NCBI GenBank assembly: GCA_964578865.1
Contig: CAZOES010000002.1
Coordinates: forward strand, 31,243-95,242
DNA: 64,000 nucleotides
Direction of reading: 5' to 3'
From: an uncultured Gemmatimonadaceae bacterium
GTDB lineage: Bacteria > Gemmatimonadota > Gemmatimonadetes > Gemmatimonadales > GWC2-71-9
The notes under the pieces are model-generated. The model searched no databases. It was given only the letters and a program-made list of their open reading frames with translations, and was not told where the DNA came from. Of the stretch, positions 9,379 through 51,718 are shown piece by piece. Position numbers and translations under genes: made by a program. Position 1 is the first letter of the stretch, and every line of letters begins with the position of its first letter.

Positions 9379-10503
9379 CTACTTGATCACATATCTGGCG
9401 ATTTTCTGCTGGTCCTCACCCAGGCGCATAATCAAATAGATCCGACCGTTCGAACCGAATCCCGCCAGAGAACTATTGCGGGGCAGCTGTACCGTTCGGA
9501 TCTGCTTCCCATCCCGTCCCACCACATCCCATACCGGGATCGAATCGCCCCATGGCCGGGAGCGCTGCAGCCAGACCTCTCCAGCCGGACTGGTCTGGCC
9601 GGCGGCAAAGGGAGGCTTCACATCGGCAAAGGGGTAGGAGAGTTCGATGCCGGCGGGTGCGCCCATCTGGGCCATCTGCACCCGAAGTTTGTCGAGAAAG
9701 GCGTCCTTCTCCACCTGGGGTACCGCGATCTTCTCGAACGGTCGCGCCGGCCCCCGAGTCCATTTCCCGTCAGGGGCCAGCCAGTCCACGGCGTTGTTGG
9801 AGGCCCGGGCCACCCAGAGTGAGCCGTCGGGCAGGACTCCGAAGAGATCACGGCCGGAGAAGATGGTCGACACGATCTTCTGCTGGACTCCGAACTGTCC
9901 TCGGCCCCACACCGGCAGCTTGAGATGGGCGATGGTGTCGGCCAGGGTGTCGGTGGCGTGGACCCGGAGAATCGGCAGGCTGTCGAAGTCGAGCTCCTGG
10001 CCCGGCTCCAGGCCGCCTAACACAGAGCGGATATCTTCCTTGTAGCCGTTGTGCTTGGCGTCGTAGGCCAGCGGCTGGTTGTAGCCGCCCACTCCGGCCC
10101 CCCGCATGGTGGTGATGAATTCGCCCTTTTCATTCCACAGGGTGGTCCGCTGAGCTCCGAAGTCCACCAGCCCCACGGTATCGCCTCCGAAATGCAGCAC
10201 GAAGCCGGGCAGCCGGTGCCTGCCCGGGGCGGGATCACCGGGCTTGATGGTGTCGCTGTGTTCGCCGATCGAAATGGTTTCGCCGCTGGTGAGATTGGCG
10301 AAAATGAAGGTCTTGTCCTTGAGCTCGGCCAGGGCGATCCGGCCGTCGGTGAGCTCGACCACGTTGCTCACCTGCTTGAAGGTGTGATCGAGAGTCAGCT
10401 CGGGCTGATCCAGTACTGCGATCGCCGTCGAGGTTTCACCGTTACAGCCGGCCAGAACGATGACAACAGCGGCGGCCGAAGCCAGCCGAGGATTCAGCTT
10501 CAT
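9379..10503 (-). CDS. Six-bladed beta-propeller lipoprotein, uncharacterised
   Basis: Lipobox LAGC; FGVLPDGSLWVAR, KPPF, PAGEVWLQR, WDVVGRDG; paralogous to 10528-11625 and 15592-16746. Confidence 0.7.
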   Translation of the reverse strand: MKLNPRLASAAAVVIVLAGCNGETSTAIAVLDQPELTLDHTFKQVSNVVELTDGRIALAELKDKTFIFANLTSGETISIGEHSDTIKPGDPAPGRHRLPGFVLHFGGDTVGLVDFGAQRTTLWNEKGEFITTMRGAGVGGYNQPLAYDAKHNGYKEDIRSVLGGLEPGQELDFDSLPILRVHATDTLADTIAHLKLPVWGRGQFGVQQKIVSTIFSGRDLFGVLPDGSLWVARASNNAVDWLAPDGKWTRGPARPFEKIAVPQVEKDAFLDKLRVQMAQMGAPAGIELSYPFADVKPPFAAGQTSPAGEVWLQRSRPWGDSIPVWDVVGRDGKQIRTVQLPRNSSLAGFGSNGRIYLIMRLGEDQQKIARYVIK

Positions 10504-10527: not shown

Positions 10528-11625
10528 TCAGGGAGTGGTGCCGGCTGCCGCAGCTGGCGCGGGCATCCGGTAGTCGAGCAGACGAACCCCGCCTTCGAAC
10601 GACTCGCCGACGACGGCGACGCCTTCACCCACGGCGAGGATCCGGCCGAATCCGGCATGATCGGCGGTCCGGATCAGGTGGCCTTTGCGATCGATCAACT
10701 GATAATGCCGCAAGGTGTCGCCGATGGCGCGGTTCTTCACCAGCCATACGGTGCCATCCGGCGCGCTGAAGGCGTTGTCGAACGGCGGCTTGATCACTAC
10801 GAAAGGGATTTGGGCGACGGTGGGACGGAGGGCAGACTCGAATTTGTTGAGAAACAGGTCGCGATCGTTCTGGGTCACCGGCAGCACCGCATCGGGTAGC
10901 TCTCGTCCCCGGTGGATTGCTCCGTTCGCTTCACGCCAGTCCACCCGGTTCTGGCCCACCCGCGCGATCCATAGCGATCCATCGGGCAGCACGCCCCAGC
11001 GGTCCTGCCCCGAGAGCAGCCGCCGTTCCAGCCGGACTCGGCCCTCGCTCATCACCTCGGCGAGTTCCAGTGGCGCCAGCCGGGCAATGGTGTCCCCTTG
11101 GGTGAAGTCCGGCTTGGTGCGGACGATGGCGGCGGAATCGCGATTGCCCGAGCCATCGGGTCCGGGAGGAGGGCGGAGTTCGAAGTACCAGTTGCCTTGA
11201 GCGTCCCGGGCCCGAGGGAGGGCACCCCGCAGGGCACTCACCGCGGGTGTTGCGCCGCCCAGCTTGCCATCCAGCGACCAGGCGGTCAGCCGGCGGCGTT
11301 GCCAATCGGCCACGTAGATCGAATCGCCCGCCCGGAACAGATGGAAGGGCTGCTCCAGCTCTTTGCTCTTCGCCCCGGCGAACGGGGCCAGTTTCCGGGT
11401 ACTGAGGCTGGCGCTGCTCACCGCCCGGTCCTGTGGTGCAATCAGGGCCCAGTTACTCCCACCCAGCCACGCCGCATCGGTGATGTCACCGTAGGGCGTG
11501 AGCAGGGTATCGCCCACCGGCTCAAGTCTCAGGGTCTCTGCCTGGGGCTGCTCCGATCCACAACCCGCGGCCAGCGCCGCGGCGGTGAGGAGCAGGATGA
11601 AACGAGAGGAAATCGGGCTCTGCAT
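10528..11625 (-). CDS. Six-bladed beta-propeller lipoprotein, uncharacterised
   Basis: Lipobox AAGC; WGVLPDGSLWIAR, KPPF, APDGTVWL. Confidence 0.7.
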   Translation of the reverse strand: MQSPISSRFILLLTAAALAAGCGSEQPQAETLRLEPVGDTLLTPYGDITDAAWLGGSNWALIAPQDRAVSSASLSTRKLAPFAGAKSKELEQPFHLFRAGDSIYVADWQRRRLTAWSLDGKLGGATPAVSALRGALPRARDAQGNWYFELRPPPGPDGSGNRDSAAIVRTKPDFTQGDTIARLAPLELAEVMSEGRVRLERRLLSGQDRWGVLPDGSLWIARVGQNRVDWREANGAIHRGRELPDAVLPVTQNDRDLFLNKFESALRPTVAQIPFVVIKPPFDNAFSAPDGTVWLVKNRAIGDTLRHYQLIDRKGHLIRTADHAGFGRILAVGEGVAVVGESFEGGVRLLDYRMPAPAAAAGTTP

Positions 11626-16754: not shown

Positions 16755-16831
16755 GCGTGAAAAGTGAAACGTGAAATGTGAACGGGACCGGGCCAACTTC
16801 CTTCTCACTTTTCACTTTTCACTTTTCACGC
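16755..16831. repeat. Tandem-heptamer inverted-arm element (GTGAAAN x4 / TTTTCAC x4)
   Basis: GTGAAAA GTGAAAC GTGAAAT GTGAAC, spacer, TTCTCAC TTTTCAC TTTTCAC TTTTCAC; between convergent genes. Confidence 0.85.
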
Positions 16832-16838
16832 AGTTGTC

Positions 16839-17582
16839 TCACCGTTCTCCACTTACGGCGTAAGAACGGGTCGGCACCGCCCACCGAATTCCCCGTTCCA
16901 CGTACCCGAAACGCCGCAGGGCCATCTCGATTACCCACTCCCAGCCGGCCCGGGCGACCGCCTCGACCCAGGCCATTTCAGTCGCGAGCCGGAGCCAGCG
17001 CCGGAGCGAGCGAGGATCCACCCCCGCGGTCAACGCCGCCAACTCGAGCGACACGTGGCCCGGTAGTGCCGGGGCGGTGAGGATCTGGACCAGCCGAGCC
17101 AGTCCCCGCCAGTCGCGCACCTCCAGCGAGCCCAGGGCGCGGACCCGCCGGGTCAATGTCCGAGGTGGACGGGGGTCGTCTCCCCCGTCGCCGAAGCAGG
17201 CGCCAAGGGTGCTGGCAGTGCCCGGTCGGGCCAGCCGTTTCTCGACCCAGAGCGCGATGGTGGTCGGTTGGGGAGTCGGTCGCCGGGCAATCGCGCGGAG
17301 GGCCCGTTCGGCCGGCGCGAGCCCGGGATAGTCACCGGGGTAGAGCGGGGCGAAAACTCCCGGGACGGACTCAAAAGCAGAAAGGCACGCACTCGACACT
17401 TTCCGGTCGGCGACGCAGGTGACCAGAGGGCACCACGGCGCGTCCCGGTGTTCCTGTACCGCTTCCGACAACGCGGTGATGCCGGCGGAGAGATCCGCCA
17501 CGATTGCCGACCCAACCGGTGGCCGAAAGGAGCCGGCGGGAAGGAACCGCAGGTACGGAGGTTCGAGAATATGGAGTGACAC
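16839..17582 (-). CDS. Divergent AraC/XylS-like transcriptional regulator
   Basis: Two HTH-like segments, PPRTLTRRVRALG and SLELAALTAGVDPRSLRRWL; unassigned N-terminal domain; divergent from the propeller/peptide genes. Confidence 0.5.
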   Translation of the reverse strand: MSLHILEPPYLRFLPAGSFRPPVGSAIVADLSAGITALSEAVQEHRDAPWCPLVTCVADRKVSSACLSAFESVPGVFAPLYPGDYPGLAPAERALRAIARRPTPQPTTIALWVEKRLARPGTASTLGACFGDGGDDPRPPRTLTRRVRALGSLEVRDWRGLARLVQILTAPALPGHVSLELAALTAGVDPRSLRRWLRLATEMAWVEAVARAGWEWVIEMALRRFGYVERGIRWAVPTRSYAVSGER

Positions 17583-17673
17583 AGAAATAACCTGCCTGCC
17601 CCGCGAGCGGCGGGGGTTCGCACTCAGGGGTCCCGGCTTGTGCGCGGGGGGCGGGTAGAGTGCACGAAAATGC

Positions 17674-17711
17674 GACGGGGTTCAAGCTGACGGGCGCGAA
17701 CCCGCCGTCAG
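17674..17711. promoter_or_regulatory. Nested inverted repeats in the divergent promoter region (candidate operator)
   Basis: GACGGGGTTC...GAACCCGCCGTC and CTGACGG-N11-CCGTCAG; GGGGTTC also recurs about 60 bp upstream. Confidence 0.35.
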
Positions 17712-17778
17712 TGGCGTGAACCTGCATGGTGATGAATCAGGCCGACCGGTAGCGTGAGCCACTCTCACCGACCGGCAC

Positions 17779-18741
17779 ATGCGATTCCTCGTCCAACGGG
17801 CCCCCTGGATCAGTTTGACCATCGCGCTCATCGGTCTCTCGGCCGATCAGCTGGCGGCGCAAGCATGTCCCAGCGGCCCAGTCGCTCTCGATGCGCGGGC
17901 TACCCTCCTCCTTCCCGCGTCCTTCGGTATCTCCGGAGTCGCAACCTCGCCCTCCGGAATTCTGACTCTATGGTCGGCTAACGGCGAAATCTTCGCGATA
18001 GATCAGAAACGCACACTGATAAGAATCCAGCTACCCGACACCATTCGGCCGGCGGGCATGACCGTCACGCCGGATGGAATCCGGATTCTGGATCTGCTGA
18101 ACGGACGGGAGTATCTCCGCCACCCCGACGGCACCTTCGCGCTGACTGGTCAGGTTCGGCTCGGCATGGCCGACCAGATTGATCAGGCACTGTGGCGGAA
18201 GGACGGCTGGATTATCGGCCTGCGAGACCTGGCAAGCCGCCGCTTCGTGGTACGTCGTTTCTTCGACACCACTGGGCAGGAACTGTTCCGCTCGGCTCCT
18301 TCCGACAGCGTCAAGACAATTCAGCGCTATCACCTTAGCGACTCAAAGCGGGGTCTCCTGTTAACCCGCACCATGAGCCCGTTCACGGTAATCCGGCTGG
18401 ATCCCGCCAGCGGCATTGCCGACACCCTGCAATCGTTAGCCGACGGTTCGACCCTCGCGATTCCCCCGGACAGCCTGGCCCACTGGCGGGCCCTCTCTGC
18501 GGTGGCCCTCGACTGCACCCTGTTGCTCACCCTGAGTGATCTCACCGCCGACCGGCGGATCCTGGTCCGCTACGGTGCGGACGACCGGGTGGCCCAGGCC
18601 ACCCAGCTGGATGCCCCGCTCGGCTTGATAGCCCGGTTGCCGGGAGAAGATGCCGTGCTGGCGGCCCGCCGGGCCGGCGAACTGGAGTTGGTGTGGTATG
18701 ACTGGCACTGGGTCCGGGAGCCCAGCTCAAACATCCGTTGA
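17779..18741 (+). CDS. Secreted protein, probable divergent beta-propeller
   Basis: Signal peptide (..LAAQ); about six blade-like repeats (GVATSPSGILTLW, GMTVTPDGIRIL, ALWRKDGWII, LSDSKRGLLL, AVALDCTLLL, ARLPGEDAVL). Confidence 0.55.
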   Translation: MRFLVQRAPWISLTIALIGLSADQLAAQACPSGPVALDARATLLLPASFGISGVATSPSGILTLWSANGEIFAIDQKRTLIRIQLPDTIRPAGMTVTPDGIRILDLLNGREYLRHPDGTFALTGQVRLGMADQIDQALWRKDGWIIGLRDLASRRFVVRRFFDTTGQELFRSAPSDSVKTIQRYHLSDSKRGLLLTRTMSPFTVIRLDPASGIADTLQSLADGSTLAIPPDSLAHWRALSAVALDCTLLLTLSDLTADRRILVRYGADDRVAQATQLDAPLGLIARLPGEDAVLAARRAGELELVWYDWHWVREPSSNIR

Positions 18742-18762
18742 TCCATGAGGAGAACGATCAAT

Positions 18763-19215
18763 ATGCGCATGAAATCTTTGATAGTATTGTTAGGCTTGAT
18801 CTTGCTGCTGGCGGGAAGTCCTCGGGTGGCCTCGGCCCAGAGCCTCGCGTCCCTCGCAGCGGCCAACGCGGTTACCGCAGTCGAAAAGCACCCGGGATGC
18901 TGGGGCTGTGGCGTCTACATGGGTATGTCCGTCTGTCAGGGGGGATTCGTGCCGGGCGCCTTCAACTGCACCTCCGGCCTTGCCAACGGTTGCACGCTGA
19001 GCAGCCCCGGCTGCGGCGGCGGTGCGGCCCTGCCGATCGATCCCGACGGGGCGACTCAATATGTGTCACGGGGCAGCTTGCTGGTGGAGCAGGTTGTGTT
19101 CCACGACGGGGATCCGCCAGTTAGGCGGAACTGTGAAGGAATCGTAGTCGCGCGGAAGCAGACTTCTGACGATATTAAGAGCGTACGGAACCGTACCGGT
19201 ACGCTCACCCTCTGA
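18763..19215 (+). CDS. Small secreted Cys/Gly-rich protein (peptide-precursor-like, 150 aa)
   Basis: RBS GAGGAG at 18747-18752; Sec signal ending ASA; core CxxC-x8-C-x10-C-x7-C-x6-C; C-terminal domain with RRNCEGIVVAR. Confidence 0.75.
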   Translation: MRMKSLIVLLGLILLLAGSPRVASAQSLASLAAANAVTAVEKHPGCWGCGVYMGMSVCQGGFVPGAFNCTSGLANGCTLSSPGCGGGAALPIDPDGATQYVSRGSLLVEQVVFHDGDPPVRRNCEGIVVARKQTSDDIKSVRNRTGTLTL

Positions 19216-19238
19216 GACCCGCTCCCGGATCCGTCGCC

Positions 19239-20444
19239 ATGTCCATGTCCCGCCAGCGTTACACATTCATTGCCGTTCTCAGTCTCGGCCTCTGGTTGCA
19301 GCCTCAGACGCCGCCGGTCGTATCCGTCGACCGGGTGGTTGCCCAGCGCGACGCGCAGTTCTCCGTTCCCGACAGCGTGCGGGCACTGCTCTCGTATGTC
19401 ACCGGGCTGGTGCTCGACTCCGACAGCACGCTCTATTTGTCGGATTATCAGCTGGGCGGGATCATCCACCTGGAATCGTCGGGGGATTTCCGTCGAGTCA
19501 TCGGGAACCGCGGCGGTGGTCCCGGGGAGTTCAATTCGATTCTGGCTCTCGGACTCCACCAGGACTCGCTATGGGCCATGGATCCCGCCCTGGTCCGTTT
19601 GACCCTGATTCCCAGACAGGGGCGGGGGGCCACCACGGTGCCCTTCGGCTCCTCCGCGGCGACCGTGGCTTCTCGCGGCAGGCCCCAGACCCGCAGGGGA
19701 TTGCCGGCCACCGTCCTGCCCGACGGATCGCTGCTGATGCAGGAAGTGGTACTCGACAGCGGCGGGGTCGCCGGCAAGTCGGGTTTCGCCTTTCTCCTCC
19801 GCGCCGACCGCAATCTCGAAGTCTTGGATACCCTGGCCCGGTTTCCCATGGGGCACTCCGACATGGGATTCGAGTACCGTGACGGGGCAGCGCTCTATAA
19901 TCAGCCCTTTGGGGATGATCCGGTCTACCGGGTGTCCAGCGACGGAGCCTTGCTGGTACTGGTCAGCCGGGAAGCCTCCCGTCGCGGCGGAGAGGCCACG
20001 TTCAACGTCACCGCGCTGCGGAACGGGCGGGAAGTGATATTTCACCGCGAGATCGCCTATCAACCGCGCCGGCTTCCCCGCTCAGAGGTCGACAGCGTGG
20101 TGAATGCGCTGGCTCACCCCCAGCCCCGCAATCCCCCGACGCCGATTACGGCGGACTCGATTCTCCGCCAGCTCTATCGCCCGGCATTCTATCCCCCGGT
20201 GAAAGAAGTCCGGGTGGGCCGCGACGGCGCGGTCTGGCTCCAGGTCAACTTTGCCGATTCCCCTGTTGGAGTGGGAGACTGGCTGATTCTCTCCCGCAAG
20301 GGATTCGAAATGGCGCGGGTCACGTTCCCTGACAGGTTCCGGTTATTGGAGGCCAACCGCCGGAGCGTCTGGGGAGTGGAAAGCGATGCGCTGGACGTGC
20401 CGCTCGTCAGCCGCTACCAGATTCCGGAGTGGACCGCGCAGTAG
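19239..20444 (+). CDS. Secreted six-bladed beta-propeller (TolB-like/NHL) protein
   Basis: Signal peptide; GNRGGGPGEF, VLPDGSLL, VSSDGALL, VGRDGAVWL, C-terminal VWGVESDALDVP.V.RY. Confidence 0.75.
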   Translation: MSMSRQRYTFIAVLSLGLWLQPQTPPVVSVDRVVAQRDAQFSVPDSVRALLSYVTGLVLDSDSTLYLSDYQLGGIIHLESSGDFRRVIGNRGGGPGEFNSILALGLHQDSLWAMDPALVRLTLIPRQGRGATTVPFGSSAATVASRGRPQTRRGLPATVLPDGSLLMQEVVLDSGGVAGKSGFAFLLRADRNLEVLDTLARFPMGHSDMGFEYRDGAALYNQPFGDDPVYRVSSDGALLVLVSREASRRGGEATFNVTALRNGREVIFHREIAYQPRRLPRSEVDSVVNALAHPQPRNPPTPITADSILRQLYRPAFYPPVKEVRVGRDGAVWLQVNFADSPVGVGDWLILSRKGFEMARVTFPDRFRLLEANRRSVWGVESDALDVPLVSRYQIPEWTAQ

Positions 20445-20469
20445 CAGTCCGCCCATCCAAGAGTCGACA

Positions 20470-20504
20470 CCCAGGGCCAGTACCGATCCGGTGCTGGTCC
20501 TGGG
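20470..20504 (+). terminator. Strong GC hairpin after the propeller gene (terminator or mRNA-stability element)
   Basis: CCCAGGGCCAGTACCG-ATC-CGGTGCTGGTCCTGGG followed only by CCTTTC, a weak U-tract. Confidence 0.45.
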
Positions 20505-20631
20505 CCTTTCGGGGCCCTGCGAGCGGGTCTGTCGCGGAAGGATATTGCGCGCTTTATTGGTACTAACCCCCTCCTGCGACCGTGCTAACGTGTGGCGCAT
20601 CATTATCGCCACCGTTGACACGCGAAACGAC

Positions 20632-21765
20632 ATGACCCGGTACTCCAGTCTCCTTCTGGCAGTCGTGGTGCTGGCCCTCCCGGCCTGTAAAGGCAAGGCG
20701 GCGCAGGCCGAAGGCGAAAAACCGTCCTCCGGCGGTGACGAAGCCGGTCTGGGTGGCGGTTCCAGTCTGGCGCTGCCGGTGGCCGGTGAGCCGGTCCGCC
20801 AAGGCGATCTGGTTCTCACCGTCGCAACCACGGGTCAGGTCCGTTCCGAGGCGATTGCATCGCTCAAGGGGGAGACCAATGGAACCGTCGAGGATGTCCT
20901 GGTCCGGCCGGGCACCCGGGTGAAAAAGGGCGATCCGATCATCCGATTGGATCCCCGTCCATTCGATCTGGCGGTTCGAGAGGCTGAAGCCAGTCTGGCC
21001 GAAGCCGACATCAAGTATCAGGGCAGTCTCGCCTCCGACTCCATTCTGCTGGGTCCGGCTCAGGAAGCCGGCCGGCTCAAGAATGCCCTGGCCCTTTCCG
21101 GGGTACCGGCAGCGAAGGTTCGCCTCGAACGGGCCCAGCTGGATCGCGAACGCGCCACCATCACCGCGCCGTTCGACGGAATCGTCGATCGCGTCAGTAT
21201 CGCCGCGGGTGAGCGGCTTTCCCCGGGTCAGGATGTCGCGACCATCGTGGATGTCTCTCACCTCAGGGTCGAAGCTCAGGTGCTGGAGCACGACCTTCCC
21301 TACGTGCGCAGTGGCGGTGAAGCGCTGATCTCCACCCCGGCGACCCAGGGCAAACCGGTGCACGGCCGGATCGCCGCGGTGCTGCCGCTGGTCGACTCCA
21401 CCAGCCGGGCCGGGCGAGTGGTCGTCGGGGTGACCGCCGGACCCGGCTCGCCGCTGCAGCCCGGGATGTACGCCGATATTCGCCTCGAAGCGACCAGGCT
21501 CCCCAACCGCATCATCGTCCCGGCCCGCGCAGTTATCGAACGCGATGGTCGCCCGCTGGTGTTCGTGGTCAAAGGCGGCCGGGCGCAGTGGGTCTATATC
21601 GTCCCCGGGCGCAGCAACGGGGCCGAGACCGAGGTCCTCGCCGACTCCACCTCGGGGCAGATTCCGGTTTCGGTAGGAGACACGGTCCTCACCGAAGGCC
21701 ACCTCACCCTCACTCACGATGCTCCGGTCAGAGTCCTTTCTGCCAAAGAAAGGGCGGAGCCCTGA
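20632..21765 (+). CDS. RND efflux periplasmic adaptor (MFP), lipoprotein
   Basis: ATG 20632; lipobox LPAC; V..G..VKKGD.I..LD, ITAPFDGIV, LQPGMYAD. Confidence 0.9.
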   Translation: MTRYSSLLLAVVVLALPACKGKAAQAEGEKPSSGGDEAGLGGGSSLALPVAGEPVRQGDLVLTVATTGQVRSEAIASLKGETNGTVEDVLVRPGTRVKKGDPIIRLDPRPFDLAVREAEASLAEADIKYQGSLASDSILLGPAQEAGRLKNALALSGVPAAKVRLERAQLDRERATITAPFDGIVDRVSIAAGERLSPGQDVATIVDVSHLRVEAQVLEHDLPYVRSGGEALISTPATQGKPVHGRIAAVLPLVDSTSRAGRVVVGVTAGPGSPLQPGMYADIRLEATRLPNRIIVPARAVIERDGRPLVFVVKGGRAQWVYIVPGRSNGAETEVLADSTSGQIPVSVGDTVLTEGHLTLTHDAPVRVLSAKERAEP

Positions 21766-21768
21766 TTT

Positions 21769-21845
21769 CGTGAGACGGGAGACGTAAGCCGTGAGCCGCA
21801 CCTGGCTCACGTTGACGTCCCACCTCTCACGTCTCACGTCTCACG
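21769..21845. repeat. Tandem-heptamer inverted-arm element (GTGAGAC / GTCTCAC)
   Basis: GTGAGAC GGGAGAC GTAAGCC GTGAGCC ... GGCTCAC ... GTCCCAC CTCTCAC GTCTCAC GTCTCAC; fills the gap between the MFP and RND1 genes. Confidence 0.8.
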
Positions 21846-21851
21846 GTTGTT

Positions 21852-24800
21852 ATGTCCCTCGCCTCTACCGCCCTTAAACGTCCGGTCACCACCATCGCGG
21901 CAACCATCGCACTGGTTCTGCTCGGTGCGGTGTCGCTGGGTCGGCTGCCGGTAACTCTGCTTCCCGACGTCACCCTGCCGGTGCTGACTATTCGCACCCT
22001 CTATCCCGGCGCGGCGGCCACCGAAGCGTCCCGCTTTGTGGCGGAACCGGTTGAAGAAGCGATTGCGGCGACGCCGGGTCTGGTGGAGTTGCGTTCGGTG
22101 AGCCGGAACGGCGAGGTCACTACCACCGCGCAGTTTGCCTGGGGCACCGACATGGCTGCCACCGTGCTGACAGTACGGGAGCGACTGGACAACGCCCGAG
22201 CCCAGCTGCCGGAGACCGCCGAACGTCCCACGCTGCTGACCAGCGATCCGGGTCAGCGGCCGATCGCTGTCCTGGGTGTTACCGGCTCGGGCGACCAGCG
22301 AGCCATTGCCCGGCTGGCCGAACAGGTGCTGGCCCGCCGGCTGGAACAACTGGATGGCATCGCCAGTGTAGCGGTGACCGGGGTGCCGGAAGACGAGATC
22401 CGGGTCGAACTGGATCCGGGCCGGCTCCGGGCGCTGGATCTCACCACCGAGAACGTGGTAACCGCAATCAGGAACGCCAATGCCGCCGCGCCGGGCGGGA
22501 CCATCCGGCGGGGTCAATTCCGGTTCTCGGTACGGGCGCTGACTGAACTTCGTCAGCTCGATGAGTTCGCCCAGATTCCGGTAGGCCAGTCGGGGCGGGC
22601 CGGCGGTCCGATCAAACTCTCCGACGTCGGCAAGGTCTCGCTCGCCACCGCCGATCCCCGGACCCTGACCCGGCTCGACGGTACTCCCGGTATCGGTCTG
22701 GTGGTCTACAAGGATGCCGGAGCCAACACCGTTGCGGTCACCAGTGACATGGTGGAGACCGTGGAGCAGCTGGGGAAGGAATTCCCCGAGGTCAAGCTCA
22801 AGGTGGTGGCGGCTCAGGCCCGCTTCGTGACCGACGCCCTTTCCAACCTGACTCAGGAAATTGTCGCCGGCGGGCTGCTCTCGCTGCTGCTGATTCTCCT
22901 CTTTCTGCGCGATTGGCGCAGCGCCCTGGCCATCGGTCTGATCGTTCCCCTTTCGGTGCTGGTTTCACTCACCGCGCTGCAGATGCTCGGCGTTACCATC
23001 AACGTTCTCTCGCTGGGCGGACTGGCCCTGGGTGTCGGTCTGCTGGTGGACAATGCCATCGTGGTGTCGGAGGCCACCGGGCGATATCGCGAGGAAGGGA
23101 TGGAGCGCTGGGTGGCCGCCAAGGTCGCTGCCGAGGAAGTCTCCGGTCCGCTGATCGCCGGAACCCTGACGACGGTACTGGTTTTCGGACCGATCGTATT
23201 CGTCCGTGGTCTGGCGGCGGCGCTGTTCCGCGATCTCTCACTCGCGGTAGTCGCCTCGCTGACCGCGTCGCTGATTCTGGCGCTGACCTTGATGCCGGTC
23301 CTTCTGGTGGGTCGAAGAAAGACGGGCGCGACGGGCAAGACGGGCCACAACGATCCGTCCGGCCCGCCTGCCTCGTCCGCCGCGCCCGTCTCCTGGCTGA
23401 CCCGGCTTGGCCTGCAACTGGCCGAGTGGTATGAACACGGCATGATGTGGTCGCTGGATCATCCCCGCACCGTGTTCACCATTTCGATTGGGTCGACTGC
23501 GCTGGCCGCCTGGCTCACGCTGCAGTTGCCGCGGGAAATCCTGCCTCAGGTGGACGAAGGGGTTGCGATTGCCTCGCTACGACTGCCGGAAGGCACCGCA
23601 ATCGAGGAAACCGCCCGTCAGGCCGCCCGAGTGGAAGCCGCGGCGAGCAGTCTCGGGTCTAGAGGGATCTACTCCCGAATCGGCGCCGCCACTGACGAGG
23701 AGCTGGTGTCCGGGGCCGAGCCGGGCGGGCCCAGTTATGCACAGCTGCTGTTGCCGGTCCCCAGCGGATCGCCGGCCCGGAAATTTGCCGATCAGTTGCG
23801 AGCCAGGATCCCCGATCTGGCACAGGGCGGTCTGGCCATCGACCTGGCGGGTCAGTCGGAGTTCGGCAGTCTGATCGGCCGGGAGGGCCGGTTGCTCCGG
23901 GTGGAGATTGCCTCACCCGATCGACGCACCACCGCGCGGTGGGCCGATACCGCTCGGACTTTGCTCAACGGAGTGCCCGGACTCACCGACGTTCGCGATG
24001 CCTACGCCGGAACTCAGCCGGTCATCGAGCTGAGTCTGGAGCGCGAGCGGATCGCGTTGCACAATCTGTCGATCGATGCCGTCTCCAGCGCATTGGCCGG
24101 CGGATTGGGGGGCGTCAAGGCGAGCGAGCTGCGGGAGACCGACCGGCGAACTCCCATCCGGGTCCGCTACGAGGGCAGTGCTAACGAAGACCTGGCTACC
24201 GCACTCAACGCCACCATCAGCGGAGTGCCACTGGGACAACTGGTACAGGTGAAGGAAGTACGTGACCCGGTCGAAGTGGTGCGGGTCGACCAGCGCCCGG
24301 TGCAGGTACTCGAGGCCGCGGTCGAACGAGGGGGCACCGCCAAAGCGGTCGAGCGGGTGCAGAGCACCCTCGCCGGTCTGGCCGCTCCGGCCGGCCTCAC
24401 CTGGCAGATCGGCGGGGCCGACACCGAGCAACGCCGGACCCTCTCCGAGATGGGGGTGGTCGCGGTACTGTCGGTGGCGCTGATGTTTCTGGTGCTGGCC
24501 GGTGAATTCGCCTCGTTCACCATTCCGCTGCTGGTGATGCTCACGGTTCCGCTGGCCGGAGTGGGCGGGATCGTAGTGCTCTGGCTGACCGGCCAGAGTC
24601 TCAATGCGGTGTCGTTGATCGGTATGGTGGTGATGATCGGTCTGGCCGACAATGACGCGGTGGTGAAACTCGATGCCATCCGTCGGTTCCGGGAGGAAGG
24701 GCACTCGATCCGGGAGTCGGTGTTGCTGGGTGGACGCCAGCGGCTCCGCGCGATCGCCATGACCTCGCTGACTACCATCGTGGGTGTGCTGCCCCTGGTG

Positions 24801-25025
24801 ATGGGTTGGGGCAGCGGCGGCGAGCTGTACCAGCCGCTGGCCGCCGGGGTAATCGGTGGCTCGGTGACCGCCACCCTGGTGACCTTCTTCCTGCTTCCAA
24901 CAGCATATGCGGTGGTCGAAGAGCGGGCTGAGAAACGTCAGGCGGTCAGGCGGTCAGGCGGTCAGGAAGCAACTGATTCCGACTCAGGTCCGACCGCCCG
25001 TCCGCCTGTCCGCCCGACCGCCTGA
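21852..25025 (+). CDS. RND efflux permease 1 (AcrB/AcrD/AcrF family)
   Basis: 1057 aa; LKRPV..., PVEEAI, GLLVDNAIVV (TM4), IGLADNDAVV (TM10), RLRAIAMTS (TM11). Confidence 0.93.
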   Translation: MSLASTALKRPVTTIAATIALVLLGAVSLGRLPVTLLPDVTLPVLTIRTLYPGAAATEASRFVAEPVEEAIAATPGLVELRSVSRNGEVTTTAQFAWGTDMAATVLTVRERLDNARAQLPETAERPTLLTSDPGQRPIAVLGVTGSGDQRAIARLAEQVLARRLEQLDGIASVAVTGVPEDEIRVELDPGRLRALDLTTENVVTAIRNANAAAPGGTIRRGQFRFSVRALTELRQLDEFAQIPVGQSGRAGGPIKLSDVGKVSLATADPRTLTRLDGTPGIGLVVYKDAGANTVAVTSDMVETVEQLGKEFPEVKLKVVAAQARFVTDALSNLTQEIVAGGLLSLLLILLFLRDWRSALAIGLIVPLSVLVSLTALQMLGVTINVLSLGGLALGVGLLVDNAIVVSEATGRYREEGMERWVAAKVAAEEVSGPLIAGTLTTVLVFGPIVFVRGLAAALFRDLSLAVVASLTASLILALTLMPVLLVGRRKTGATGKTGHNDPSGPPASSAAPVSWLTRLGLQLAEWYEHGMMWSLDHPRTVFTISIGSTALAAWLTLQLPREILPQVDEGVAIASLRLPEGTAIEETARQAARVEAAASSLGSRGIYSRIGAATDEELVSGAEPGGPSYAQLLLPVPSGSPARKFADQLRARIPDLAQGGLAIDLAGQSEFGSLIGREGRLLRVEIASPDRRTTARWADTARTLLNGVPGLTDVRDAYAGTQPVIELSLERERIALHNLSIDAVSSALAGGLGGVKASELRETDRRTPIRVRYEGSANEDLATALNATISGVPLGQLVQVKEVRDPVEVVRVDQRPVQVLEAAVERGGTAKAVERVQSTLAGLAAPAGLTWQIGGADTEQRRTLSEMGVVAVLSVALMFLVLAGEFASFTIPLLVMLTVPLAGVGGIVVLWLTGQSLNAVSLIGMVVMIGLADNDAVVKLDAIRRFREEGHSIRESVLLGGRQRLRAIAMTSLTTIVGVLPLVMGWGSGGELYQPLAAGVIGGSVTATLVTFFLLPTAYAVVEERAEKRQAVRRSGGQEATDSDSGPTARPPVRPTA
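24938..25025. repeat. Tandem-octamer inverted-arm element embedded in the 3' end of RND1
   Basis: (GGCGGTCA)x3 ... CCGACCGC CCGTCCGC CTGTCCGC CCGACCGC CTGA; translated as QAVRRSGGQEATDSDSGPTARPPVRPTA*. Confidence 0.8.
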
Positions 25026-28000
25026 TGATCACCTGGGCCACTCGCCGCCCCGCGGTAGTCTGGGCCACTGCCGTAGCCCTGATCCTGGCCGGCGGCCTGG
25101 CGCTTTCGCGTCTCCCTATCGCCACCAAGCCCTACGTCGAACTGCCTCGGCTCACCGTCTCGATGAGCTGGCCCGGTGCCTCGGCCGAGCTGGTCGAGAC
25201 CTATCTCGGCAGCCCGATCGAAGCGGCCATTCAGTCGGTGCGGGGCATTCGCAAGATCGGCAGCGAATCGGGCGAGGGATATCTCAGTCTCGATATCGAA
25301 CTGGATCCCGGCACCGATGTGCGGCTGGCTCGTCTGGGCGTGCTGGAGCGGCTGGAGTTGCTGCGGGAGGATTTCCCGGCTGGATCGTCCGACCTCCAGG
25401 TCAGCAATTACGTCCCCGAGGGGCTGGACGAAGAGCCGCTGATCGGGGCGACGGTGTATGGCCCCTATACCGCTGGTGCCTTGAAGCAACTGGTCGAACG
25501 GCAGGTTCAACCTCGGGTCAACGCTGTGCCCGGCGTTGCCGGGGTCCGGTCCCGGGGCGGCGCGATTGTCGGGGTCTCGGTGGCCTATGCACCCGAGAAG
25601 CTCCGTCAGCTGGGCATCGAACCATCGGTGTTGAGTGCGGCGCTGGCCCAGGCCCGGGTGGTGGAAGCAATCGGTGTCGAGCAGGACGGGGCAAACCAGC
25701 GACAGGTGGTTCTGCGGGACACCCCCGATGTGATCGAACAGTTGGGTGAGATCCCGATCCGCGGGGCCGGGGGCCGAGTCCACCGCCTCTCCGATCTCGC
25801 CACCATCCGGCGGGAGGAAGACAATCAGGACCGCTTCTTCCGGGTGAACGGCGAGCCGGCCGTGATGATGCAAGTGGCCCGGCTCCCCGGCGCAGATGCC
25901 ATCCGGACCGCCAGGGAGGTACGGGCGGTGCTGGAGGAGCTCCGCTCCGGGCTGCCCGCCGGAGTCCGTTTCCAGATCATGAGTGATGAGAGCGTTCGCC
26001 TGGGTGATCAGCTAGACGATCTGGGGCAGCGGGGGGCTATTGCGTTTGCCGCCGTGCTGCTGGTGCTTGCCATCGGGTTGCGAGCACCAAGGGCGGTGAT
26101 CATGGTCCTGGTCAGCGCGGTGGTAGCGGTCGCGGGAACCACGCTCGGGTTATACCTCCTGAAGATTCCTGCCAATCTGCTCACGCTGGCCGGACTGGGG
26201 ATGGGAGTCGGCATCCTGGTGCAGAACGGTCTGGTGGTGGTCGATCGGTTGCGGGCGGTTCCGGACACCCCCGAACGACGGGCCGAAGCCGGCCGCAAGA
26301 TCACACCGGCGGTGCTTGGCTCAACCCTGACCACGGCCGTGGTGCTCTTTCCATTTCTTTATCTCCAGGGTGACGCCCGCGCTGCGTTCATGCCCTTTGC
26401 GGCGGCCTTCAGCCTGGCGCTCGGTTGGTCCATCGTGACCTCAGTCGTGATGATTCCCGCCTTCGGGGTCGGGAAGGGTAGTCAGAAGGCGCGCTGGGTC
26501 GGGCTGCGCCACTTCTATCTTCGATTGGTGATTGTGCTGCTCCGCTGGCGCTGGGCCACCATTACCGCCACCCTGCTGGTGCTGACCGGCCTGGGCTGGG
26601 TCTTCGTCGTGAAAGTTCCCCGTTCCAGTTTCGCCGGATGGTATAACCAACGCACGACCCTTTCGGCCCGAGTCGATTTTCCCAGTGGATCCGACCCCGC
26701 CAGCGTGGACCAGAGTGTGAGGGACCTGGAGCGCATCGTGGTGAACCGGCCGGGGGTGGACAATGTTCAGGCCCAGGGTGACGCGGACGGCGGCTTTGTG
26801 GTGGTGACTTTCGATGATGATGCGGCATACACTGCGATTCCGCTGCAGATGCAGGAGGAAGTGACCCAGCGCGCGGTGCTGATCGGCGGTGCGTCTGTGG
26901 GGGTGAGTGGTCGGGGGCCCGGGTTCTACAACGGTGGTGGTTCCGGGAGTCTGGCCACTTTCCGGGTCAAGATCCTGGGATACTCCTTTGCCGGAGTGGA
27001 ACAGCTTGCCCTTGATCTCAAGTCACGTCTGGAAAAGATCCCCCGGGTGAAGTCGGTCGATATCAACGCCGCCGGATTCTGGTTCGGCCGGGAGAAGTCG
27101 AGCGATGTCACCCTGGTTCCGAATCGCTCGTCGCTGGCAGGGTACGGTCTCGATGCCAGCCAGTTCGCCCAGGCGGTGACCCGCGAAGTAGGTGGTGCGG
27201 CCGGGCGCCAGCGCTTTACCCTGGGTGAAGAGGAAGTCTGGCTATCCCTCAAAACCGAAGGGGCTCGCACTCGCACCCTGGACCAGCTGCGCGAAGCGCG
27301 GGTCCCCAACACCCGCAACATTCCAGTGCGGATCGGCGATCTGGCCGGGGTGGACGAACGGGAAGCCCTCTCCCGGATCAGCCGGGAGAATCAGCAATAC
27401 GTGCGGGTGCTCAGTTACGAATTCCGGGGTCCTCAGAAGCTGGCCAACCGGACCCATGAAGCATTCATGAAATCGATCTCGGTGCCTCCGGGCTACACCG
27501 TGAGCGACGAGTATTTCGGCTGGCAGGATGATGAGAGCCAGAAGGGACTGTGGCTGGTCTTCGCGATCGGTCTGGTTTTGGTCGTGCTGACGGTCGCGAT
27601 GGTATTCGACTCGGTGTGGGGCGCGGCGATGGTCTTTCTGAGCCTTCCGATTGCTCTCGCGGGGGTCGTTGCGGCCTTCTGGTTCACCCACGCCGCCTTC
27701 ACCCGTGAAGCGGCGGTCGGCGTGATCCTGGTGATTGGTCTGGCGGTGAATCAGTCGATCCTGCTGGTGGATGGTGTCCTGCAGCGTCGACCTGACGGGA
27801 CCCGGGCCATCCGGCCTTCATTGATAGTCGCCTCCTGCCGTGACCGGGTCGGCATGATCGTCCTCATTACCTTCACCACCCTCGCCAGCCCTCTCCCTCT
27901 GGCAGTAGGAACCCAGGCCCAGGATCTGTTCGGGGCCATTGCTCTCGCTGTGGTCGGCGGGACCATCGCTGGCACCCTGGGCGCCATGTTCCTGCTGCCG

Positions 28001-28030
28001 CCGTTGCTGGTCCGCGGATCTCGGAACTGA
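25025..28030 (+). CDS. RND efflux permease 2, degenerate proton-relay motifs
   Basis: 1001 aa; ATG overlaps the RND1 TGA; TM4 GILVQNGLVV, TM10 IGLAVNQSILL, TM11 DRVGMIVLITFTT. Confidence 0.9.
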   Translation: MITWATRRPAVVWATAVALILAGGLALSRLPIATKPYVELPRLTVSMSWPGASAELVETYLGSPIEAAIQSVRGIRKIGSESGEGYLSLDIELDPGTDVRLARLGVLERLELLREDFPAGSSDLQVSNYVPEGLDEEPLIGATVYGPYTAGALKQLVERQVQPRVNAVPGVAGVRSRGGAIVGVSVAYAPEKLRQLGIEPSVLSAALAQARVVEAIGVEQDGANQRQVVLRDTPDVIEQLGEIPIRGAGGRVHRLSDLATIRREEDNQDRFFRVNGEPAVMMQVARLPGADAIRTAREVRAVLEELRSGLPAGVRFQIMSDESVRLGDQLDDLGQRGAIAFAAVLLVLAIGLRAPRAVIMVLVSAVVAVAGTTLGLYLLKIPANLLTLAGLGMGVGILVQNGLVVVDRLRAVPDTPERRAEAGRKITPAVLGSTLTTAVVLFPFLYLQGDARAAFMPFAAAFSLALGWSIVTSVVMIPAFGVGKGSQKARWVGLRHFYLRLVIVLLRWRWATITATLLVLTGLGWVFVVKVPRSSFAGWYNQRTTLSARVDFPSGSDPASVDQSVRDLERIVVNRPGVDNVQAQGDADGGFVVVTFDDDAAYTAIPLQMQEEVTQRAVLIGGASVGVSGRGPGFYNGGGSGSLATFRVKILGYSFAGVEQLALDLKSRLEKIPRVKSVDINAAGFWFGREKSSDVTLVPNRSSLAGYGLDASQFAQAVTREVGGAAGRQRFTLGEEEVWLSLKTEGARTRTLDQLREARVPNTRNIPVRIGDLAGVDEREALSRISRENQQYVRVLSYEFRGPQKLANRTHEAFMKSISVPPGYTVSDEYFGWQDDESQKGLWLVFAIGLVLVVLTVAMVFDSVWGAAMVFLSLPIALAGVVAAFWFTHAAFTREAAVGVILVIGLAVNQSILLVDGVLQRRPDGTRAIRPSLIVASCRDRVGMIVLITFTTLASPLPLAVGTQAQDLFGAIALAVVGGTIAGTLGAMFLLPPLLVRGSRN

Positions 28031-28119
28031 GGGCGGAAGGGGCGGAAAGGGCGGAAGGGGCGGAAGACTAAGACTTCCGCCTTTTCCGCTTTTTCCGCCT
28101 CTTTCGCCTCTTCCGCCTT
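28031..28119. repeat. Tandem-nonamer inverted-arm element (GGCGGAAGG / CTTCCGCC)
   Basis: Four GGCGGAA(A/G)G units directly after TGA, 7-nt loop, five TTCCGCC-type units. Confidence 0.85.
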
Positions 28120-28143
28120 GTTGAATCCCCGCCCACTTGCTCA

Positions 28144-28176: not shown

Positions 28177-29655
28177 ATGCAGAGCTTTCGGAGTATTCAT
28201 TCGATCGGGTTTTTAGTGATTCTGGCGGGAGCCTGTGCCCCATCCCTCCCGGGTCCTTCCGGTGCCAAGCCGGTCGCGGTTCGTCCCGACACGCTGTGGG
28301 CCCCTCCGCCGGGTTCACCCGAGAAGCAACCGCCGGTCACTACTCCGCGCGATCTTCCCGCGGGTATCGCCGAGCGGCGCACCGCCCTCACCCTCGAGGA
28401 TGTTATTGCGCTGGCGCTGGAATCCAGCCCGACCACTCGCGAGTCCTGGGCCAACGCCAAAGCGCAAGCCGCCGCCTATGGCGCGGCCCGCGGCGCGTGG
28501 TTCCCCACCATTCAGGGTTCGGCCACCGTGACCCGGCTCAAGACCGCCGCGATTCTGGGTCGTAACGCGGTAACTCAGTCGGTCTATCAGCCGAGTGCTT
28601 CCTTCACTTACCTGCTACTTGACCTCGGCGGGCGGAGTGGCGGCATTCGAGCCGAGCGAGAGGCATTGGTCGCCGCGAATTGGACCCACAACAGCACCCT
28701 GCAGAATGTGGTGGCCACTGCCGCCGCAGCGTATTTCGACTACACCGCCGCCAAAGCACTGCTCTCGGCCCAGGAAGCCACCGTGGCTCAGGCCGATACC
28801 AACCTTGCCGAGACGGAGGAACGTCGGAGGGTCGGTCTCGCCACCATCGCCGATGTGCTGCAGGCTCGTACCGCACTGGCTCAGGCCCGGCTCGACCTGC
28901 AGACCATCGAAGGCAATCTTTTCACCACTCGGGGCGCTCTCGCGGTGGCGACCGGCTTCCCGGCCAATCTCGAGTACGATGTCGATACCACCATCGTGGA
29001 ACGCGATGTGATGGTGCTGAGCGAGAACGTCGATACGTTGATCGCCGCGGCGCTGGCCGAGCGGCCCGATCTGGCTGCTGCCAATGCGGAGTACCAGGAA
29101 GCCCGAGCCCGCATTTCGGTGGCCCGGGCCCAGCGGCTTCCTTCTATTACTACGAACGGCAACGCCGGCTATACCAAGGTGGCCGGCCAGCCGGGCAGCT
29201 GGGCTAATTCCTACACCCTGACGCTCGGGCTGCAGATTCCGCTGTTCAACGGCTTTACCTGGGAATACAACCAGCAGCAGGCCAAGGCCGATGCCGAAGC
29301 TGCGCTGGCTCGGGCGGCCGGACTGCGGCAGCAAGTGGTCTTCGAGGTGTTCCGTTCCTACTACGCTCTTCGGACCGCAACCGCCCGGGTGGGGAATGCA
29401 GAGGAACTGCTCAAGTCGGCCAGCCAATCGGCCGAAGCAGCCCGAGGCCGATATCAGGGCGGAGTGGGCACTTTGCTGGAATTGTTGACCGCCGAGACTG
29501 CGCTGGCCGGTGCCAGGGCTCAGCGGATCCAGGCGCGGCTCGGCTGGCAGGCCGCCCTGGTGCAGCTCACTCGTGATGCCGGACTACTGGATCTCTCGGG
29601 CCAGAGCTCGCTCAAGCTGGTCCCGGCAGAGTCTTCTAACGATTCATTGCCATGA
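28177..29655 (+). CDS. TolC-family outer-membrane efflux factor, lipoprotein
   Basis: Lipobox AGAC; LTLEDVIALALESSP, ERRRVGLATIADVLQA, RPDLAAA, RYQGGVGTLLELLTA. Confidence 0.92.
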   Translation: MQSFRSIHSIGFLVILAGACAPSLPGPSGAKPVAVRPDTLWAPPPGSPEKQPPVTTPRDLPAGIAERRTALTLEDVIALALESSPTTRESWANAKAQAAAYGAARGAWFPTIQGSATVTRLKTAAILGRNAVTQSVYQPSASFTYLLLDLGGRSGGIRAEREALVAANWTHNSTLQNVVATAAAAYFDYTAAKALLSAQEATVAQADTNLAETEERRRVGLATIADVLQARTALAQARLDLQTIEGNLFTTRGALAVATGFPANLEYDVDTTIVERDVMVLSENVDTLIAAALAERPDLAAANAEYQEARARISVARAQRLPSITTNGNAGYTKVAGQPGSWANSYTLTLGLQIPLFNGFTWEYNQQQAKADAEAALARAAGLRQQVVFEVFRSYYALRTATARVGNAEELLKSASQSAEAARGRYQGGVGTLLELLTAETALAGARAQRIQARLGWQAALVQLTRDAGLLDLSGQSSLKLVPAESSNDSLP

Positions 29656-35968: not shown

Positions 35969-36045
35969 CGTGAGACGTGAAAGGTGAAATGTGAAAAGGG
36001 GCTCCGGCGCAAAGTCAGAGCCCTTTTCACTTTTCAGGTTTCACG
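35969..36045. repeat. Tandem-heptamer inverted-arm element (GTGAAAN / TTTTCAC)
   Basis: GTGAGAC GTGAAAG GTGAAAT GTGAAAA GGGGCTC ... GAGCCC TTTTCAC TTTTCAG GTTTCAC; between convergent genes. Confidence 0.85.
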
Positions 36046-51656: not shown

Positions 51657-51718
51657 AAAGTGAAAAGGGGTTCCTAACCGATCCACGTTTCACTTTTCAC
51701 GTTTCACTTTTCACGTAG
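51636..51718. repeat. Tandem-heptamer inverted-arm element (GTGAAAA / TTTTCAC)
   Basis: CTACGTGAAGC GTGAAAA GTAAAAA GTGAAAA ... GTTTCAC TTTTCAC GTTTCAC TTTTCACGTAG; the left arm supplies the TAA stop; convergent genes. Confidence 0.85.

Follow-up and report, generated by a model that had tools for sequence, protein, structure and literature searches.

A conserved exported propeller–cysteine protein operon beside a divergent two-permease RND pump in an uncultured Gemmatimonadaceae bacterium

Gene Content of the Locus

Positions 16839–28030 of a 64,000-nucleotide stretch of DNA from an uncultured Gemmatimonadaceae bacterium (hereafter the window, to which all positions refer; G+C content, 62%–67%) hold two independently conserved modules side by side. 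Module A (16839–20444) consists of the gene R247 and the operon P320–C150–P401, together termed the cassette, and module B (20632–28030) consists of MFP–RND1–RND2, the genes of a resistance–nodulation–division (RND) pump. R247 (16839–17582, minus strand; open reading frame [ORF] of 247 amino acids) encodes a cytoplasmic, putative helix-turn-helix regulator. The trio on the plus strand encodes a predicted exported six-bladed β-propeller (P320: 17779–18741, 320 amino acids), a protein with a signal peptide and a cysteine-rich mature part (C150: 18763–19215, 150 amino acids) and an exported NHL-repeat β-propeller resembling DUF5128 proteins (P401: 19239–20444, 401 amino acids), with intergenic gaps of 21 nt (P320/C150) and 23 nt (C150/P401). 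Fold statistics place a 16-bp GC-rich stem-loop at the 3′ end of the trio operon (20470–20504, plus strand). The pump genes follow on the same strand: a lipoprotein periplasmic adaptor of the membrane fusion protein type (MFP: 20632–21765), an HAE-1-like permease (RND1: 21852–25025) and a strongly divergent full-length permease (RND2: 25025–28030). Upstream of the cassette, outside the studied part, lies P397 (15553–16746, plus strand), another exported NHL-type β-propeller. An ORF check reproduced the gene set, coordinates, gap lengths and hairpin position of an earlier reading made from the nucleotide letters (hereafter the original prediction).

The cassette has no counterpart among named families. 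R247, P320 and C150 matched no family in Pfam or NCBIfam scans, and no named protein was matched either; the scans of the four non-pump proteins (R247, P320, C150 and P401) gave no matches, in agreement with the predicted absence of a peptide-modifying enzyme. Each cassette family has 46–86 homologue clusters, and the genes are real and under selection. The PADLOC anti-phage models did not match P397, R247, P320, C150 or P401, and an Rfam scan of the whole window returned no matches. With three proteins outside all Pfam and NCBIfam families and a gene order kept across 22 species, the earlier description of an undescribed conserved module was confirmed.

Distribution and Gene Order

When one genome per GTDB species was scanned, C150 turned up in 22 species; every carrier is a Gemmatimonadota metagenome-assembled genome (MAG), and all belong to one order. 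Wherever the contig reached, these species kept the order P397 (plus), R247 (minus), P320, C150, P401 (plus), MFP, RND1 and RND2, as did three metagenomic loci. Separate occurrence of the peptide/propeller genes and the RND pair, which the original prediction had named as its refutation, was not seen there: they co-occurred in every C150-carrying Gemmatimonadales genome with enough contig. This strict co-occurrence within the clade favours the functional reading put forward earlier: C150 would be secreted and rich in disulfides, serving as a signal, a bacteriocin or a metal binder, with the propellers as receptor or immunity proteins for it and MFP–RND1–RND2 as its dedicated exporter. Likewise in its favour, the whole cassette and a regulator paralogue are duplicated upstream of a single pump in three loci (L013, L014 and L023), an arrangement resembling multi-cassette bacteriocin loci, and the cassette proteins diverge faster among carriers (34%–68% identity) than the pump proteins (69%–88%).

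The junction between P401 and MFP is variable, with 0.2–7.5 kb inserted in about half of the loci. The inserts usually carry a second R247 paralogue (approximately 30% identity), which is divergent from MFP in L005, L019 and L061; in some cases, another P320/C150/P401 set, partly decayed, and a fragment of a DDE transposase are present as well. Such tolerance of inserts would be expected if the adjacency were historical only, that is, if a single insertion of the cassette next to the pump in the clade ancestor had brought together modules with unrelated tasks; the confinement of all carriers to one order and the independent occurrence of both modules described below point in the same direction. 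Against this explanation, the cassette–pump adjacency persists down to 34% identity in P320 and 45% in C150, it has survived repeated rearrangement of the junction, and several genomes have R247 paralogues at the promoter of the pump.

A reverse scan of metagenomes with an RND2 alignment yielded 42 loci. The cassette was present only where RND2 was at least 84% identical (L034, L035 and L061), and approximately 30 metagenomic loci with RND2 at 48%–70% identity contained MFP–RND1–RND2 without the cassette. The pump is thus far more widespread than the cassette. In several of these cassette-free loci (L043, L045, L046–L048, L051, L054, L067 and L071), one propeller gene lies directly upstream or downstream of the pump. 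The propellers of L043, L045 and L046–L048 are orthologues of P397 rather than P401, sharing 36%–40% identity with P397 (E 1e-78 to 1e-86), compared with E 1e-4 to 1e-6 for P401, and those of L051, L054, L067 and L071 are also closer to P397 (25%–28% identity). In L043, the next genes upstream are the housekeeping genes PPK2 and glucokinase.

The trio, in turn, extends beyond the clade. Six distant relatives of C150 were found on contigs with 53%–64% G+C, and a P320-like gene immediately precedes the C150 relative in all six. A P401-like gene follows it in L078, L080, L081 and L082, and the contig of L077 ends too early for the next gene to be identified. Neither R247 nor the pump was found in the flanks of these six loci, which are short (1–6 kb). 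The P320–C150–P401 trio is therefore the minimal unit, and three layers can be distinguished: the trio; the pump, often with P397; and, in one Gemmatimonadales clade, their juxtaposition together with R247, with the cassette placed between P397 and the pump. As a side observation, the third gene of L075 (1761–2705) encodes a 314-amino-acid protein that combines a CarboxypepD_reg-like N-terminus with a TonB-receptor Plug domain and lacks a barrel, and L078 has a CarboxypepD_reg protein approximately 1 kb downstream of the trio. These neighbours hint at a link between the trio and outer-membrane transport.

The RND Pump

MFP matched HlyD_D23 (E 5.5e-30) and scored 168 bits against TIGR01730, above the cut-off. 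The ACR_tran model covered both permeases almost completely (RND1: positions 2–1020 of 1021, E 4.5e-206; RND2: positions 1–1017 of 1021, E 1.7e-129). RND1 and RND2 share 24% identity, and their genes overlap by 1–4 nt in the window, L001 and L007. The relay residues were aligned with those of RND3, a permease with the canonical DD/K/R set encoded in the same window, and are numbered as in AcrB (D407 and D408 in transmembrane helix [TM] 4, K940 in TM10 and R971 in TM11). RND1 carries D-N in TM4 and ADNDA in TM10 and retains the arginine of TM11; the corresponding pattern (D-[NTQ], ADN[DE]A and R) was present in 39 of 39 orthologues. RND2 carries Q-N, N and G at these sites, so that all four residues are gone, and its orthologues conform to [QH]-[NDS], [NH] and [GPE] in 42 of 42 cases. 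As RND2 is full-length and 48%–88% identical across lineages, it is under selection. The permeases had been called an atypical pair, and both their low mutual identity and the departure of each from the canonical D407/D408/K940/R971 relay justify the term. In the RND2 orthologues of L001 and L046–L048, an aspartate rather than an asparagine at position 408 goes with a histidine at position 940 (Q-D with H); judging from the alignment, these may form a co-varying pair in an otherwise uncharged relay site.

The closest solved structures to RND1 were unnamed efflux transporters, MdtB and AcrB (approximately 310 bits), and the best score of RND2 against the PDB was approximately 170 bits; both permeases are HAE-1-like, yet remote from every pump of solved structure. 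Against the NCBIfam equivalogs, RND1 scored 359–360 bits for MdtC (cut-off, 1774) and 316 bits for MdtB (cut-off, 1584), and RND2 scored lower; with values this far below the cut-offs, the two permeases are not assigned as orthologues of MdtB and MdtC.

Downstream, a TolC-family outer-membrane factor is encoded at 28177–29655 (plus strand; OEP, E 4.3e-58). In the window, TolC overlaps MFP2 by 4 nt, as MFP2 does RND3, and TolC is therefore assigned to a downstream canonical operon, TolC–MFP2–RND3. It follows RND2 in L001, L009, L011, L034 and L061 and does not do so in L005 and L007.

The Exported Propellers

P401 and P397 share 22% identity (BLASTP, E 5e-8), and comparison of their family profiles by hhalign gave a probability of 100%; on this sequence evidence, they are paralogues. 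Their joint profile matched the solved NHL domains of Thin, TRIM71 and TRIM2 (E 1e-20 to 1e-17; best, 1.2e-20), and the family carries the NHL repeat signature GxGPGEF. In Pfam, DUF5128 (PF17170) was recognised in 13 of 24 family members (best E 2.4e-7) and TolB_like (PF15869) in six of the 24; the window proteins themselves fell below the threshold (P401 with DUF5128, E 0.031). The profile also matched peptidylglycine α-amidating lyase (PAL; E 2e-4). Sequence comparison thus assigns P401 and P397 to the NHL/DUF5128 propellers at the superfamily level only. The paralogy bears on the historical explanation of the locus and speaks against it, as a P397-type propeller is also the neighbour of the pump in other lineages.

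P320 has no Pfam match and none in the PDB by sequence, and hhalign showed no relation between P320 and P401, P397, R247 or C150. The AlphaFold2 model (predicted local distance difference test [pLDDT] score, 87.7; predicted template modelling [pTM] score, 0.84) is all-β, with 24 strands in six blades. A Foldseek search with this model gave 701 matches at E ≤ 1e-3, of which the best 50 were all propellers, including NHL, WD40, virginiamycin B lyase (Vgb) and BamB propellers at E 6e-8 to 1e-6, and the model superposes on NHL propellers with TM-scores of 0.58–0.65. The invariant features include the mature N-terminal glutamine, and Cys30 and Cys246 are conserved. P320 is accordingly modelled as a six-bladed β-propeller of an orphan sequence family. 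Both propeller calls of the original prediction were upheld, that of P320 by AlphaFold2 and Foldseek and that of P401 by profile matches to NHL domains.

Two further paralogues of the P397/P401 family, both with the lipoprotein signal LAGC, are encoded on the minus strand at 9379–10503 and 10528–11625, and they stand upstream of P397 in most related genomes; the NHL-propeller family thus has four members in the window, all within 11 kb. Between these lipoprotein propellers and P397 (11976–15430, minus strand) are genes for an extracytoplasmic function (ECF) sigma factor, a putative anti-sigma protein and two HEAT-repeat proteins. This set occupies that position only in the closest relatives of the window (L007, L009, L011, L012 and L034); in L062 and L073, it is located on the downstream side of the pump.

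The Small Cysteine-Rich Protein C150

C150 has an N-terminal Sec-type signal peptide followed by a mature chain of 125 amino acids. Its homologues form 46 clusters of approximately 150 amino acids, all unnamed, and when 1.84 billion representative proteins were searched with the family profile, no more than 51 clusters reached E ≤ 1e-3, almost all with lengths of 125–157 amino acids. The alignment contains 34 invariant positions spread over the whole mature length, including seven cysteines (C46, C49, C58, C69, C77, C84 and C124) and the motif DPDGxTQYVSRG. In the first half, the cysteine framework reads C-x2-C…C…C…C…C; in the second, it reads R-x-C-x-G. The wider family retains the signal peptide, the framework and R-x-C-x-G-[IV][IV]-x-R, and Trp47, the sole tryptophan of the cysteine region, varies in it.

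The only profile matches of C150 to PDB sequences were to RNase A family members (E 0.007–0.5). These matches lie over the cysteine-rich stretch and were discounted as reflecting cysteine composition; the family is a vertebrate one. A Pfam scan of C150 at E ≤ 0.1 was empty, and the NVEALA family was not matched. NVEALA proteins are about half the size of C150. Of the parallel drawn earlier with Bacteroidota NVEALA loci, the weak similarity of P401 and P397 to DUF5128/TolB-like propellers stands, but C150 lies outside NVEALA and all other Pfam families. A literature search on NVEALA, DUF5128 and the combination of Gemmatimonadetes, RND and NHL found no papers in the library searched.

We also considered C150 as the precursor of a ribosomally synthesised and post-translationally modified peptide (RiPP) or bacteriocin and rejected this candidate: it has a Sec signal, it is conserved end to end with no pattern of conserved leader and variable core, and no enzyme families were found at the locus.

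These features bear directly on the reading of the pump as a dedicated C150 exporter. It is weakened by the independent distribution of the two modules, with the pump lacking the cassette in approximately 30 loci and the trio lacking the pump in the available short flanks, by the Sec signal of C150 itself, by the even conservation of its mature chain and by the separate transcription units of the two halves, which are marked by hairpins (see below). Moreover, the Pfam and NCBIfam scans found no peptidase, modifying enzyme or ABC exporter at the locus, and RND pumps are known for small molecules and not for folded 13-kDa proteins. We consequently do not retain the claim that a dedicated heteromeric transporter exports a secreted peptide and consider it very unlikely.

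A propeller combined with a small cysteine-rich subunit is also the architecture of some periplasmic enzymes. The trio could accordingly be an enzyme whose small subunit, C150, is cross-linked, as in amine dehydrogenases with tryptophan tryptophylquinone (TTQ) or cysteine tryptophylquinone (CTQ), or an NHL-type lyase or hydrolase, acting on a compound that is then expelled by the pump. The PAL match of the NHL profile and the resemblance of the P320 model to Vgb, among other propellers, would agree with such a function. However, no MauG, radical-SAM (QhpD), cytochrome or cupredoxin partner was found in or near the locus, Trp47 is not retained in the wider family, no conserved catalytic constellation was identified and the propeller similarity is generic. 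Taken together, these points make an enzymatic trio highly improbable.

R247 and Regulatory DNA

R247 belongs to an orphan family confined to this clade. It has 86 homologue clusters, whose named sources are all Gemmatimonadales or Gemmatimonadota and none of which has a Pfam domain, and its gene is always divergent from P320. Pfam scans of the family gave sub-threshold matches only, to HTH_29, HTH_28, HTH_18 and Xre, in two or three of 27 members (HTH_18 in two of 27 at E 0.047), and the R247 profile retrieved nothing from PDB sequences, including no AraC protein. A comparison with MarA and SoxS by hhalign (both sequences were entered by hand) gave a probability of 0.3%, which is not significant; residues 174–209 of R247, which are helix-turn-helix-like, align in register with the first helix-turn-helix of MarA. 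The label AraC-like could not be sustained, as Pfam, NCBIfam, PDB profile searches and hhalign found no significant match of R247 to AraC/XylS proteins, which have a C-terminal dual helix-turn-helix domain of about 100 amino acids (PF12833 or PF00165), and at the sequence level it describes a resemblance, not membership.

The R247/P320 intergenic region has a mean column identity of 36%, yet contains 20 invariant columns across 23 species. A putative operator/promoter block upstream of P320 (17690–17756, plus strand) has the form GCGCGAACCCGCC-N6-GGCGTGAACCTGCATGG-N20-TAGCGTG, in which a CGCC-N6-GGCG dyad, together with CGCGA[AT] repeats spaced by 21 bp, precedes a −10-like TAnCGT. Every cassette locus scanned has the pattern at this position in front of P320, and the few other loose matches to it fall inside genes. 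A σ54 promoter was considered for TGGCG-N-TGCA upstream of P320 and rejected, as GG and GC stand one base too close together and the C varies; an ECF-type −35/−10 reading was likewise discarded owing to unsuitable spacing. A scan for the σ70 consensus found no promoter. On the minus strand, the leader of R247 (17599–17630) contains a hairpin (17599–17615) and an invariant CCCCTG (17625–17630). CAGGGG (CCCCTG on the minus strand) is invariant in 23 species, and the stem persists in 19 species although its sequence differs; this conservation suggests that the leader may be an autoregulatory element or one acting at the RNA level.

The hairpin at 20470–20504 has a 16-bp stem, the region has a z-score of −3.57 and none of 200 shuffled sequences folded as well. 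It is probably a terminator, with a weak U tract. A GC-rich hairpin of differing sequence follows the P401 stop codon in nearly every related locus, and from this conserved position it follows that the trio is its own transcription unit. The proposed role of the hairpin as the boundary between the two halves is therefore well founded. Upstream of MFP, an AT-rich motif, GCGYTTTATTGGTAC, is present in the window (20545–20575), L009 and L012, in a genome of approximately 64% G+C; it is a candidate promoter or operator of the pump operon. A terminator between the modules and a possibly separate promoter before MFP again favour a purely historical adjacency. Set against the persistence of the adjacency through divergence and rearrangement, the P401/P397 paralogy and the R247 paralogues, we regard this explanation as rather unlikely, although it deserves serious attention.

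Further palindromes flank the studied genes. Between the convergent stop codons of P397 and R247 (16757–16829), tandem GTGAAAN heptamers on one arm face their complement on the other; further copies are located at 35970–36044 and 51639–51714, and the window contains 17 matches compared with 0.36 expected. The palindrome at 16757–16829 is probably a bidirectional terminator, similar to a repeat-built terminator or a repetitive extragenic palindromic (REP)-like element. Another repeat palindrome, (GGGCGGAA[AG])x4 facing (TTCCGCC…)x4, lies between the RND2 stop and the TolC start (28031–28120) and is probably also a terminator.

Proposed Function of the Two Modules

We propose that the locus combines two envelope modules, a divided-labour pump and a regulated exported trio, that handle the same class of substrate. 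Module B would be the older module, a tripartite RND efflux pump with two deeply diverged permease genes. In the E. coli pump MdtB2C, mutating the relay is more disruptive to function in MdtB than in MdtC, and MdtC is the main substrate-binding subunit (PMC4338810). By analogy, we infer that RND1 and RND2 form a heterotrimer with divided labour, in which RND1 would energise transport through its altered but usable relay and RND2 would bind substrate or play a structural role. The features observed are gene adjacency or overlap and complementary relay loss. A P397-type periplasmic NHL propeller might capture or process the pump substrate. In module A, R247 probably controls P320–C150–P401 through the operator upstream of P320. 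The three proteins would be exported by the Sec pathway and could come together, in the periplasm or at the surface, as a complex of both propellers with C150 as its small, disulfide-bonded subunit. The cassette would then act on the same small-molecule substrate class as the pump, and C150 would not be cargo. A shared substrate class is suggested because P401 is paralogous to P397 and because a second R247 paralogue is divergent from the pump operon in several genomes. More generally, a functional link between the modules is plausible, given that their adjacency outlasts divergence and junction rearrangement, that P401 and P397 are paralogues and that R247 paralogues occur at the pump promoter.

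Several points weigh against this proposal. Each module exists without the other, and the adjacency, confined to one order, could stem from a single insertion event. None of the cassette proteins has an assigned function, R247 matches no DNA-binding family significantly and the AlphaFold2 model of C150 is unreliable (pLDDT, 47.6; 21 sequences). Adjacency of P397 and the pump is frequent but not universal (roughly nine of 25 informative loci), and the 1–6 kb flanks of the distant trios leave room for a nearby pump. In view of these points, we consider the proposal of two envelope modules with a common substrate class to be about evenly balanced between right and wrong. A bolder version is distinctly unlikely: the trio might be a new exported machine in which two unrelated six-bladed propellers are clamped by a disulfide-knotted C150, forming, in Gemmatimonadales, a periplasmic front end that delivers or processes substrate for a naturally asymmetric RND pump whose permeases are one energising and one relay-dead. 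If this were true, periplasmic substrate selection, energy coupling and extrusion would each reside on separate dedicated proteins.

Only a narrow range of lineages, all uncultured, carries the cassette, and this limits the immediate impact. The two operon-level units of the locus and the conserved putative operator nevertheless offer experimental handles in a phylum with very few studied genes. For annotation, R247, P320 and C150 represent proteins without any family, and P397 and P401 match the NHL and DUF5128 models weakly. For efflux biology, a pump with a relay-dead permease that is widespread outside Proteobacteria would be a natural version of the MdtB2C mutagenesis result and could reveal the way in which energy is coupled to transport in asymmetric RND trimers.

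Comparison with Known Systems

An adaptor gene followed by two adjacent, overlapping RND genes is the layout of MdtABC (E. coli), MuxABC-OpmB (P. aeruginosa) and SmeIJK. A small operon in which an RND pump is accompanied by a soluble periplasmic partner is known from CusCFBA with CusF, and P397–MFP–RND1–RND2 in L043 and L045 is alike in this respect. However, the P397 partner is a 40-kDa propeller and not a small metallochaperone, and no metal-binding motifs were identified. In MdtB2C, one relay is far more important than the other, and substrates bind mainly to the subunit with the less important relay (PMC4338810); the pump described here may be divided in a similar way. It differs from MdtBC in the identity of its permeases (24% compared with about 50% for MdtB/MdtC), in its host phylum, Gemmatimonadota, MdtBC having been described as the outcome of a duplication in Proteobacteria (PMC7015380), and in its relays, as that of RND2 has been lost naturally and completely and RND1 has D-N/DND/R instead of DD/K/R.

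Among propellers, P401 and P397 match the profiles of NHL domains such as those of TRIM71, TRIM2, Thin, the PknD sensor and PAL, and P320 superposes on this fold. Sequence matches are limited, however, to the first two or three blades, and P320 is without sequence similarity. Known NHL propellers act as enzymes or as RNA- or protein-binding domains, and none is known to be linked to RND pumps. With the DUF5128/TolB_like propellers of Bacteroidota, the proteins share export or lipoprotein anchoring and the presence of several paralogues per locus. R247 resembles AraC/XylS regulators, which bind repeated half-sites beside the −35 element, in its size and divergent orientation, and the putative operator, with elements approximately 21 bp apart, would abut the promoter, but it differs from them in having no significant hidden Markov model, PDB or profile–profile match. 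Overall, the pump would be a variant of the heteromeric RND kind, and the trio and R247 are unnamed families that combine known folds with a new small cysteine-rich protein.

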